Shown here in pieces: positions 15,466-17,733 of a stretch of DNA of 64,000 bases. Source of the stretch: Clostridia bacterium (lineage in GTDB: Bacteria > Bacillota > Clostridia > Lutisporales > Lutisporaceae). The translations under genes were made by a program, and so were the position numbers. Below the pieces are notes generated by a model that made no database searches, had not been told where the DNA came from, and saw only the letters and a program-made list of their open reading frames with translations. Every line of letters begins with the position of its first letter. Within the stretch, counting starts at the first letter, position 1. The stretch is from NCBI GenBank assembly GCA_017994115.1, contig JAGOLK010000004.1, forward strand, positions 213 through 64,212. Direction: 5' to 3'.

Positions 15466-16512
15466 CTATATTACCTCTATTGAATATTTACCCTTTGTTT
15501 TTACTTTTCCTATTATGTTGAAATCTGTTTTATTGTTTTTTCGAAGTTCCTCCATCAGTTTCTCACTGTTTTCTTCAGGCACTGATATAAGAAGTCCGCC
15601 CGAAGTTTGAGGATCGTACATAATATCCTTGATTTCCTGCTTTATGCTTTTATCAAATCGGACATGTTCTCCTATATATCCTTCATTATTGTATGCACCT
15701 GCAGGAATTATTCCCATTTTTGCAAGTTCAATGCTTTCCTTAATAATGGGAATATAATCCGACCATATTTCCAGGGAAACATTGCTTGCTTCAGCCATTT
15801 CGTAACCATGCCCCAAAAGGCCGAAGCCTGTTATATCAGTGCAGCCGTTTATGCCAACCTTCATCATTGCCTCACAGGCATCCTTATTAAGGTACGACAT
15901 AACATCCACTGCCTTTTTATATACTCCTTCATCAGTAAGATCCGCTTTTATTGCAGTATTCAATATGCCAATGCCCAGGGGCTTTGTAAGTATAAGCATA
16001 TCCCCGGGCTTTGCCCCGGAATTGGCGGTTACCTTACCGGGATGCACCATTCCCATAACGGAAAGGCCGAATTTCGGTTCATCATCTTCTACGGAATGCC
16101 CTCCGACAACTATTGCGCCGGCTTCTTTAACCTTGTCCGCTCCGCCCTTAAGGATTTCTTTCAGAATATCAATAGGCAAACAAGTGGGAAAGCATACTAT
16201 ATTCATTGCAGTAACAGGCCTTCCGCCCATAGCATATATGTCACTTAAAGAGTTTGCCGCTGCAATCTGTCCAAAGGTATATGGGTCATCTACAATAGGA
16301 GTAAAAAAATCCATAGTCAAAATCACAGCTTTATCTTCATCTATCTTATATACGGCAGCATCATCGGAGGTATCAATACCTACTATCAAGTTTTCATCGT
16401 AAAACTTTGGCAGCTGGCACAGAACCTGTGCCAGGGTCTCCGGACCTATCTTGGCAGCTCAGCCTGAGCTTTTGGTCATTTGTGTAAGCCTTGTTTTGTT
16501 TTTGCTATCCAT
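15466..16512 (-). CDS. selD: Selenide, water dikinase (selenophosphate synthetase) containing selenocysteine at codon 18
   Basis: The ORF track starts at 16389. Reading upstream in frame gives [44 protein letters not shown]. The TGA lies at 16459-16461, the position of the catalytic Cys/Sec of SelD. RBS GGAGG lies upstream of the ATG at 16512. Confidence 0.85.
16414..16434 (-). promoter_or_regulatory. Candidate SECIS hairpin for the selD UGA codon
   Basis: On the mRNA, CUGGCACAG GUU CUGUGCCAG forms a perfect 9-bp stem with a GUU loop. It starts 24 nt after the UGA. Confidence 0.45.
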
Positions 16513-16559
16513 AATGCCGCCTCCTTTCAACTTTCCAGCTATATTTCAATTTCCACACT

Positions 16560-16568
16560 ATTATAACA
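16560..16568 (-). promoter_or_regulatory. Possible extended -10 promoter element for selD
   Basis: On the minus strand, TGTTATAAT lies about 45 nt upstream of the selD ATG. No good -35 element is present. Confidence 0.3.
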
Positions 16569-16601
16569 TATATTCCAAGAATTTTTGACTAAATGTTTTA
16601 T

Positions 16602-16866
16602 CTGTAGGATGCATAATCCCCCGCAAGAGCTTGTATAGTATATCGAGGCACACGGATTATGATTTTGACAAGCCTAAACTGATATGCCTTTGGAAAAGTT
16701 CTGCCGGTGTCAAAAGGCCCTCCATGGCCCGAGACACCTAAGCCGGCCTCCTACCGGCTTCACGAACTTTTTACCAAAGCCATATCAGAGGCCTGTTGCC
16801 AAAATGCATAAAAGTGTGTCCTGCTATACTATACAAGCTCTTGCTTGGTTATGCATCATCCTACAG
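16602..16866. repeat. Long imperfect palindrome (265 nt), element 1 of a head-to-head pair; either a structured RNA or a MITE-like element
   Basis: CTGTAGGATG pairs with CATCCTACAG. A perfect 20-bp stem joins 16623-16642 to 16825-16844, and there are further 15-bp and 8-bp stems. The apex carries two hairpins with loops CTCCAT and CCTCCTA. The element has no ORF. Confidence 0.6.
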
Positions 16867-16874
16867 AGCACTAG

Positions 16875-17068
16875 CCTTGTATAACAGTGAGCACTTATTG
16901 GCTTTGGGCAACAGAATCGAGAGAAGATACGCAGTAAAATCCGTGGGATTTACGTGAGGTAAATCCAGCACATACCAACAGGAGGTTGGGTTTATGTGCG
17001 TCAGGATTTTACAAGTATCAAGCTCTGATTCTGTCCAAAGCTAATATCGTGCGAGTCGGTATACAAGG
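16875..17068. repeat. Long imperfect palindrome (194 nt), element 2, related to the reverse complement of element 1
   Basis: CCTTGTATA pairs with TATACAAGG, with nested stems inside. The apex carries two hairpins (16946-16966 with loop GTGAG, and 16968-16999 with loop AGGAG). It shares the blocks CTTGTATA, GGCTTTGG and GGCAACAG with element 1. Confidence 0.6.
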
Positions 17069-17118
17069 TTATTGCTCTGGGAGTATGACTGCAAACTTAT
17101 AGTTATGTCGCATCTTTC

Positions 17119-17733
17119 CTATTCTACCGTTATTTTATCCTTCATGCCGTTGAACTTGGCTTCGCCTATACCTCTTACCTTCTTAATATCCTCAATTGTA
17201 TTGAAGGGCCCTTTCTGTTCCCTGTATTCTATGATTGCTTTTGCTGTAGCCGGACCGACTCCCTCAAGAGTATCCAGCTCTTTTTCACCTGCTGTATTAA
17301 TATTTATCTTCCCCGGCTTGTTAACTGCCGCACTCTTGACCGTATTGACCCCCGGAATTGTCTTTCCTGTGTCTTGAGGGCTTTCACCCTTCTTTGGGAT
17401 GTATATCGCATCTTCATCAGCAAGTCTGTATGCAAGATTAACAGCCTCCAAATCAGCTTCCTCAACAGCTCCCCCCACCAGCCTAATAGCCTCATCAAGC
17501 CGGGTTCCCTCAATGACCGTTACTACTCCGGGATTCTTGACAAAACCGAAGATATATACGGATATTTCTGCGGGCTTTGTCTCAGCCTTTGTTTCCGCCT
17601 GATCCGGAACAGCCTCAGCAAGGCTTATCTCCGTGGCCTTTTGCTGTCTTATATAAATAGTACCGCTTATAATGACCAGAACAAGTATTGCAAATGCAAG
17701 TATTGATTTTTGTGTCCTTGTAATATAAAGCAT
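17119..17733 (-). CDS. comEA: ComEA family DNA-binding competence protein
   Basis: An N-terminal transmembrane anchor, an SLBB-like region and a C-terminal helix-hairpin-helix (ININTAGEKELDTLEGVGPATAKAIIEYR). Confidence 0.8.
   Translation of the reverse strand: MLYITRTQKSILAFAILVLVIISGTIYIRQQKATEISLAEAVPDQAETKAETKPAEISVYIFGFVKNPGVVTVIEGTRLDEAIRLVGGAVEEADLEAVNLAYRLADEDAIYIPKKGESPQDTGKTIPGVNTVKSAAVNKPGKININTAGEKELDTLEGVGPATAKAIIEYREQKGPFNTIEDIKKVRGIGEAKFNGMKDKITVE

Follow-up and report, generated by a model that had tools for sequence, protein, structure and literature searches.

Results

The comEA-selD spacer is filled by two inverted hairpins

The stretch of DNA analysed here, referred to below as the window, comprises 64,000 nucleotides (nt) of contig JAGOLK010000004.1 from a Clostridia bacterium of the Lutisporaceae. 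Near its first quarter, comEA lies upstream of selD on the minus strand, and the spacer that separates the two genes is occupied by a pair of long, related hairpins, which are the subject of this report. The spacer runs from 16513 to 17118 and measures 606 nt; an initial annotation of the window, made from the letters alone, had put it at about 590 nt. The two hairpins were called element 1 (E1) and element 2 (E2) in that annotation, and we refer to them as arm B and arm A of a single composite element. The features of the region are as follows, with related loci cited by their L numbers.

17119-17733, minus strand: comEA, encoding SLBB and HHH_3 domains.
17090-17118, minus strand, with homology continuing to 17123: comEA-proximal half of the outer stem, consensus AGAAGAATAATGCGACATAACTATAAGTTTGCA, running over the comEA stop codon at 17119-17121.
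16856-17089, plus strand: arm A (E2 together with its own outer stem, GTCATCC.../...GGAGTATGAC), defined by folding and by alignment of copies.
16852-16855, no strand assigned: TGCA junction between arms A and B; the same junctions occur in solo-A, solo-B and A-B copies.
16614-16851, minus strand: arm B (E1), defined by folding and by copies in three other genomes.
16825-16844, no strand assigned: right half of a perfect 20-base-pair (bp) stem in arm B, defined by comparison of arm B copies.
16662-16802, minus strand: sub-threshold match to the TwoAYGGAY RNA family (RF01731), full model 1-168, 32.3 bits.
16610-16613, no strand assigned: second TGCA, at the other boundary of arm B, again as in the solo-A, solo-B and A-B copies.
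16601-16609, no strand assigned: TCTGTAGGA, a 9-nt inverted copy of the arm A end TCCTACAGA (16859-16867), found as an inverted repeat and by comparison with L027.
16560-16568, minus strand: inferred selD promoter with an extended -10 box, TGTTATAAT, read by eye.
15466-16512, minus strand: selD, encoding AIRS domains.

Inverted repeats and stems were located mechanically, and the native folds were compared with those of 200 dinucleotide shuffles per run on both strands. E1 folds with an energy of -133.4 kcal/mol on the plus strand (z -15.2) and -145.7 kcal/mol on the minus strand (z -13.6), and the corresponding values for E2 are -91.7 (z -11.0) and -80.1 kcal/mol (z -9.7). None of the 200 shuffles matched the native energy in any run with either element. 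For both elements, folding reproduced the layout described in the initial annotation, namely a long hairpin whose tip is a three-way junction carrying two apical hairpins, at the coordinates given there, and mechanical repeat finding recovered the stems. The repeats include a perfect 11-nt terminal stem (16601-16611 with 16857-16867) and 49-nt arms in E1 that begin at 16623 and 16844. In E2, 20-nt arms at 16864-16883 and 17060-17079 extend the hairpin to 16864-17079, beyond the limits of 16875-17068 first assigned to it. The apical loops are UAGGAG and AUGGAG in arm B, read on the minus strand, and GUGAG and CAGGAGG in arm A, read on the plus strand, as previously described.

From sequence blocks that the two elements had been reported to share, we derived a family pattern with 24 specified bases, CTTGTATA-N6-16-CACTT-N5-9-TTKGGCAACAG. 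This pattern matches the window exactly twice, at E1 on the minus strand and at E2 on the plus strand, and produced no match in 100 shuffles. Because one common pattern matches both elements on opposite strands, E1 and E2 are related and inverted with respect to one another: they have the same layout in opposite orientation.

The hairpins belong to a dispersed, modular repeat family

We scanned one genome per species with the family pattern and obtained 45 matches at 39 loci, all in three uncultured Clostridia genomes. As lower bounds, Bacillota AMR_MDS_4744 holds at least 23 loci, Bacillota UR.bin184 at least 9 and a Lutisporaceae bin at least 7, which places the family in a lineage of uncultured Clostridia that is related to the Lutisporaceae. 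The part of the 64-kb window that matches these loci is confined to 16599-17123, where identity is 89-99%; the homology abuts and overlaps the comEA stop codon. An all-against-all comparison of the 39 loci showed that only 300-620 nt per locus are repeated and that no open reading frame (ORF) is common to them. Every analysable copy (24 of 24) is intergenic, in tandem, convergent or divergent gene settings and often only a few bases from a start or stop codon. Orientation relative to neighbouring genes is unbiased, with five co-directional and seven antisense copies in tandem settings. BLAST comparison of the elements with phage and plasmid collections gave no match, and neither did a scan of viral contigs with the family pattern. 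At one locus (L046, 121-447, minus strand) an ordinary transfer-messenger RNA gene scoring 125 bits lies about 3.8 kb from a repeat copy.

Comparison of the copies shows how the window element is built. On the minus strand, the order of parts in a full composite is an outer-stem half (AGAAGAATAATGCGACATAACTATAAGTTTGCA), arm A (antisense to E2), arm B (in the sense of TwoAYGGAY) and a second outer-stem half (AACTTCAGATATGTCGCATTATTCTTCT). The terminal consensus of the outer stem draws on roughly 50 element-end matches among the 67 matches listed. Copies with arm A alone, with arm B alone, with both arms (the window, L019, L023, L027, L030, L043 and L051) or with a third arm, arm C, all end in the same termini, and the family is modular in this sense. 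Arm A is represented by 14 distinct complete copies, each with 194 nt between the CCTTGTATA and TATACAAGG blocks, and arm B by 10 distinct complete copies that could be aligned. Arm C is about 230 nt long, less palindromic, and present at seven loci (L018, L020, L025, L031, L033, L036 and L037). E1 and E2 had been taken for two separate units 8 nt apart; they are instead the arms of a single composite copy and meet at the TGCA of 16852-16855. The original observation of a hairpin pair stands, but the outer stem beside comEA and the composite nature of the element had been missed. Outer-stem hairpins lacking arms were not found in the fetched loci.

Two further sequences touch on this modular structure. 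Arm C of L036 (2559-2639, minus strand) contains a full-length match to the Rfam family Clostridiales-2 (RF02937; 67 bits versus 58.6), so this second orphan "sRNA" (small RNA) motif may also be a module of a dispersed repeat. In addition, the arm A or B copies of L026, L037 and L042 harbour a nested palindromic repeat that is small and GC-rich (GGACACGGGGAAACGTCCCC...), is tandemly arranged in some cases and replaces part of the hairpin.

The window copy itself appears to be rearranged at its distal end. It lacks the distal outer-stem half, complete versions of which are found in L004 and L059, and to judge from the sequence the 9-nt inverted copy at 16601-16609 stands in its place and forms what had been described as the terminal stem. 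A second peculiarity lies within the perfect 20-bp stem, where the window minus strand reads CTATACAAGCTCTTGC at 16623-16638. All nine other complete arm B copies are mismatched at this position, eight of them reading CTATACTGTCTCTTGC and one (L045) CTATACTGCCTCTTGC. The difference comes down to a block of 3 nt, which is TGT in eight of the other copies, TGC in one and AAG in the window, and it is because of this AAG that the window stem is perfect. Together, the corrected 3-nt block and the 9-nt inverted duplication look like the result of one arm having been copied from the other.

The comEA-selD site is polymorphic

In relatives whose ComEA is 68-80% identical to that of the window, comEA lies directly upstream of selD-selA-selB, and the spacer is only about 130-200 nt long and free of elements (L012-L016, L057 and L058). 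These short spacers contain an ordinary terminator after comEA and the same extended -10 selD promoter. In a sister strain with 89% identical ComEA (L011), the contig runs through arm A and breaks off after the beginning of arm B. At two loci with 96-100% identical ComEA (L004 and L059), arm A occurs by itself; behind it lie a complete outer stem and then genes that differ from those of the window. Thus, the site occurs in an empty form, with arm A alone, and with A-B (in the window, and in L011 as far as its contig reaches). Of ten metagenome contigs with this exact ComEA, six stop 35-158 nt past comEA, at or within the element, as multi-copy repeats break assemblies. An insertion accounts for this polymorphic, assembly-breaking spacer. 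The window element is a dispersed repeat and an insertion: it is present in many copies in three genomes, shares nothing with the other loci outside its own limits, is missing from orthologous sites and differs between strains in its arms. These comparisons with related Clostridia, which supply the copy count that had been called for, bear out the earlier suggestion of a palindromic family resembling miniature inverted-repeat transposable elements (MITEs).

The switch in gene content downstream of arm A in L004 and L059 could be a repeat-mediated rearrangement or an assembly chimera at the repeat. From position 2734 onward L004 encodes a 127-aa protein and a PG_binding_1 protein, and from about 1850 onward L059 encodes a 352-aa protein on the other strand; none of these is present in the 64-kb window. 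At three of the element-free sites (L058 at 905-960, L057 and L012), TAGAAGAATG or TAGAAAAATGCAACG...TGCAAAAC is found directly behind the comEA stop codon. This sequence resembles the outer-stem terminus (AGAAGAATAATGCGAC...TGCA). It may represent an empty outer stem that has degenerated or a preferred target, or the resemblance may be due to chance.

Arm B is a diverged TwoAYGGAY element

At gathering scores, no Rfam family is found anywhere in the window. With relaxed thresholds, E1 matches TwoAYGGAY with 32.3 bits, short of the gathering score of 43 (E = 0.003-0.005). Two sister arm B copies that are 91-94% identical to E1 exceed the gathering score, L038 with 45.7 bits and L048 with 43.1 bits. 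Because copies of the same arm elsewhere reach these scores, the sequence comparison shows E1 to be a diverged member of TwoAYGGAY. E1 also has the architecture of the family, two adjacent hairpins within an enclosing stem, and its loops UAGGAG and AUGGAG keep the GGA with G as the final base, while AUGGAC and AUGGAU occur in other copies. E2 gave no Rfam match even at E <= 10; it is a related, unannotated arm that falls outside Rfam recognition. The Rfam comparison proposed in the initial annotation has thus placed one element of the pair and left the other without a family. Matches to RNase P, drz-agam-1 and BASRCI337 in the relaxed scan (E <= 10) are noise.

The structure is supported by covariation. 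In an alignment of 17 TwoAYGGAY sequences that includes E1, 36 of the 43 consensus pairs are altered on both sides. Compensating stem changes are also seen within the window family, such as GGCC/GGCC to GGTC/GACC and CCAAC/GTTGG to CCTAC/GTAGG. Every complete copy folds 2-20 kcal/mol better on the GGA-loop strand, with mean differences of -8 kcal/mol for arm B and -11 kcal/mol for arm A.

Canonical TwoAYGGAY motifs are the tips of long hairpins

A canonical TwoAYGGAY that is unannotated in its record was found in Agathobacter rectalis NZ_CP143948.1 (about 74450-74720; L056, 4947-5216), with a score of 159 bits. This motif forms the apex of a hairpin about 270 nt long, whose outer 46 bp are a perfect inverted repeat; the element sits between a hemerythrin gene and a GGDEF gene. 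A metagenome scan with a core pattern returned at least 120 human-gut loci, and all counts for canonical elements given here and below are among the matches listed from it. Inverted arms enclose 93 of the 102 scorable gut cores, giving hairpins whose lengths range from 206 to 340 nt and fall mostly between 233 and 290 nt. When elements were clustered at 85% identity or more over their whole length, the largest cluster had 34 members with 17 distinct left flanks. When 16 clusters were compared, the inner 170 nt or so were conserved and the outer 40-50 nt of each arm could not be aligned between clusters, although within each element the outer arms are almost perfectly complementary.

Within clusters of at least 85% identity, we counted 58 distinct double changes and 114 single changes in the stems. 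Double changes far exceed what independent mutation would be expected to yield at such divergence, and the excess fits templated correction from arm to arm.

Searches with the TwoAYGGAY consensus gave no match in Escherichia coli genomes or phages and a single match in plasmids. No neighbouring protein is universal to the canonical elements. A YoeB-like toxin and a RelB/DinJ-like antitoxin are encoded 450-700 nt upstream of some canonical elements (8 loci in 2 contexts), and this pair is too context-bound to count as an association.

One canonical subfamily adjoins Transposase_31 genes

In one canonical gut subfamily, all 12 elements adjoin a gene for a YhgA/Rpn-like Transposase_31 protein (PF04754, E = 5.7e-6), whereas the remaining 15 subfamilies, with 81 elements, show no such case. 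At L134 (reverse strand, about 100-2040) two hairpins in the same orientation flank an antisense Transposase_31 gene, and at most other Transposase_31 loci homology to this hairpin-gene-hairpin unit stops at the outer hairpin edges. Human-gut contigs with such units or arrays of them are L134, L137 (6976-11678), L096, L103, L136 and L170. In the fetched DNA of the window family, that is, the window and the 39 loci, homologues of Transposase_31 and of IS200 TnpA are lacking. We regard the Transposase_31 association as a lead rather than an explanation.

Genes and signals flanking the insertion

The selD gene contains an in-frame UGA codon at 16459-16461 (minus strand) within the motif MTKSSG*AAKIGPE, which makes SelD itself a selenoprotein in this bacterium. 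ORF callers shorten the gene to 307 aa (15466-16389). The inferred selD promoter sits downstream of the elements and is kept in element-free relatives; it was read by eye and was not picked up by a simple consensus scan. A scan of the spacer for promoters and terminators found nothing beyond shuffled expectation, and apart from the elements there is no further terminator behind comEA in the window. The insertion has probably replaced the comEA terminator. The stems of the two hairpins are roughly 75-90 bp long, and during transcription of comEA they would probably form a barrier at the 3' end of its message as a side effect; any local role of this kind is probably incidental.

Discussion

A probably mobile composite hairpin behind comEA

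We consider it likely, at a probability of about 65%, that a modular family of non-coding, multi-copy hairpins is represented at 16599-17123 by a single composite copy and that this family is a non-autonomous mobile repeat recognised by its structure. The window copy is a partly rearranged, lineage-specific insertion directly behind the comEA stop codon, with selD keeping its own promoter downstream. Such a unit would spread as DNA. Its recognised form would be a folded single strand or a cruciform, identified through the conserved three-way junction and the GGA loops rather than through the sequence of the stem, and template switching or conversion, in which one arm is the template for the other, would keep its arms complementary. 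The comparisons above establish the repeat, its insertion, its modular build and its kinship with TwoAYGGAY, whereas the mobilising enzyme, the strand that is recognised and the effect on the host are matters that we infer.

Several observations weigh against this interpretation. No transposase or other repeated ORF is found near any of the 39 copies, and no clean target-site duplication could be demonstrated. TGCA is palindromic, and its variants, TGTA with TACA, pair as a stem rather than forming a direct repeat, so the junction cannot be called a target-site duplication. No exactly matched pair of empty and filled sites from one strain is available. The conservation of the tip and the variability of the termini are the reverse of what is seen in ordinary MITEs, and the 93-97% identity of elements across species could reflect constraint rather than recent spread. 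Finally, one-sided stem transitions in arms of the Lutisporaceae type leave G.U on the GGA-loop strand at 17 sites and A.C at 5 (p = 0.017). This bias suggests selection on one folded strand, which could be a transcript or a strand-specific single-stranded DNA intermediate.

Alternative explanations

The two elements may be a pair of structured sRNAs, as the initial annotation had also allowed. The RMfam study predicted that TwoAYGGAY is a CsrA sponge (PMC4333381). Transcribed hairpins would then bind CsrA, or another RNA-binding protein, through their GGA loops, and the copies would titrate the protein or control neighbouring messages. We regard this model as unlikely, although it has several points in its favour besides the published prediction. 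The loops of arm B (AGGAG, AUGGAG, AUGGAC and AUGGAU) and of arm A (CAGGAGG, CAGGACG and CAGGAUG) place GGA in short hairpins, which is the shape of a CsrA site. These loops stay constant while the stems change in compensating pairs, and the G.U bias described above points to the strand that displays them. Yet the two arms show their GGA loops on opposite strands, so that a transcript would carry at most two of them, and one arm A loop is GUGAG; in the sister strain L011, arm A has lost its GGA and the loop is ACGAUG. Neither a promoter nor a terminator accompanies the element in conserved form, and copies occur in both orientations relative to their neighbours. Among canonical elements the strand asymmetry is not significant (46 versus 34, p = 0.22), and a perfect stem of 40-50 bp would be a substrate for RNase III. 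Genes for CsrA and FliW were not found in the window or the fetched loci, which are a small sample.

Two other explanations tie the hairpins to a larger unit or to this one site. The window hairpins could be the surviving ends of a hairpin-Transposase_31-hairpin unit like those of gut Lachnospiraceae, with the gene lost. We hold this to be very unlikely: the constant neighbour of one canonical subfamily, the flanked gene at L134 and the hairpin edges at which homology mostly ends elsewhere all speak for such units, but the 15 other subfamilies lack this neighbour, the gene is missing from the window and the 39 related loci, and outer arms that differ between subfamilies imply that solo elements are not simple deletion products of a unit. 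Alternatively, the hairpins could be a cis-regulatory structure specific to the locus, which terminates or stabilises the comEA mRNA or controls selD. They do occupy the spacer, on the strand that encodes both genes, and the window has no other terminator behind comEA where element-free relatives have an ordinary one. However, relatives with the same gene order keep the selD promoter without the elements, a finding that also leaves the earlier idea of a comEA 3' or selD 5' regulatory region without support, and the same sequences lie beside unrelated genes at 39 other loci. For both of these reasons any terminator role would be a by-product of the insertion. As a primary explanation, locus-specific cis-regulation is already largely refuted, and we give it hardly any weight.

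Implications for orphan RNA motifs

TwoAYGGAY has been an orphan RNA motif since its description in 2010 (PMC2864571). That it is the tip of a dispersed hairpin element of about 230-290 nt with hypervariable, self-matching arms may be a new point, as may the finding that such elements form mosaics with other orphan motifs, for example Clostridiales-2. Under the mobile-repeat interpretation, the question shifts from which gene the TwoAYGGAY RNA regulates to what moves the hairpin and why its tip is conserved. Covariation in TwoAYGGAY-like motifs may moreover stem from DNA copying between arms rather than from selection on RNA. More speculatively, elements of the TwoAYGGAY type, including both window arms, might constitute a distinct class of mobile hairpin DNA in which the junction is recognised and the outer arms are re-copied, with Transposase_31 possibly the responsible enzyme in one subfamily. 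We think this broad proposal improbable as it stands; if it were true, the YhgA/Rpn-like PD-(D/E)XK "Transposase_31" family, long an orphan family of putative transposases, would gain its first defined ends.

Comparison with known systems

A sponge RNA of the CsrB/RsmZ type comes from a dedicated gene, present once or a few times, that has a promoter and terminator of its own, and each transcript carries many GGA sites. The window family resembles such RNAs in showing GGA motifs in hairpin loops. It differs in that its copies number in the dozens and are dispersed, each strand showing one or two GGA loops, and instead of a dedicated gene at one conserved locus with its own promoter and terminator we found scattered copies in both orientations.

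Bacterial MITEs and foldback repeats include the Correia elements of Neisseria, RUP of Streptococcus pneumoniae and bcr1 of the Bacillus cereus group. Like these, the window family is small, non-coding, multi-copy, intergenic and bounded by inverted repeats; its many near-identical copies are dispersed, it is polymorphic for presence or absence at orthologous sites, it breaks metagenome assemblies, and some copies hold nested small repeats. In contrast to them, its centre is conserved while its termini vary between subfamilies, and it is a hairpin over its whole length rather than a pair of short terminal repeats around unrelated DNA. Nor did we find a clean target-site duplication, or an autonomous partner with the same termini in the 39 loci and the fetched DNA. 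The BIME/REP mosaics of enterobacteria and the BOX elements of pneumococci are built from palindromic units of 20-60 nt. The window family shares with them palindromic modules in alternating orientation that are extragenic and often directly behind stop codons, but its units are about 200-240 nt, against 20-40 nt in REPIN-RAYT systems, and the fetched DNA contains no cognate RAYT or IS200-like gene.

The closest relative is TwoAYGGAY itself (Weinberg et al. 2010, PMC2864571; Rfam RF01731). The motif as published and as modelled in Rfam covers the tip only, and long outer arms, many copies per genome and mosaics are not mentioned. Arm A is unrecognised by the model, and arm B of the window reaches only 32.3 bits with loops that end in G instead of a pyrimidine. 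Nevertheless, arm B aligns over the whole 168-position model and has the same enclosing stem, short first hairpin, AG linker and longer second hairpin. Both of its hairpin loops are GGA-based, with the exact AUGGAC or AUGGAU in some sister copies, its hosts are likewise Clostridia, and its total hairpin of about 265 nt has the length of the canonical gut elements.

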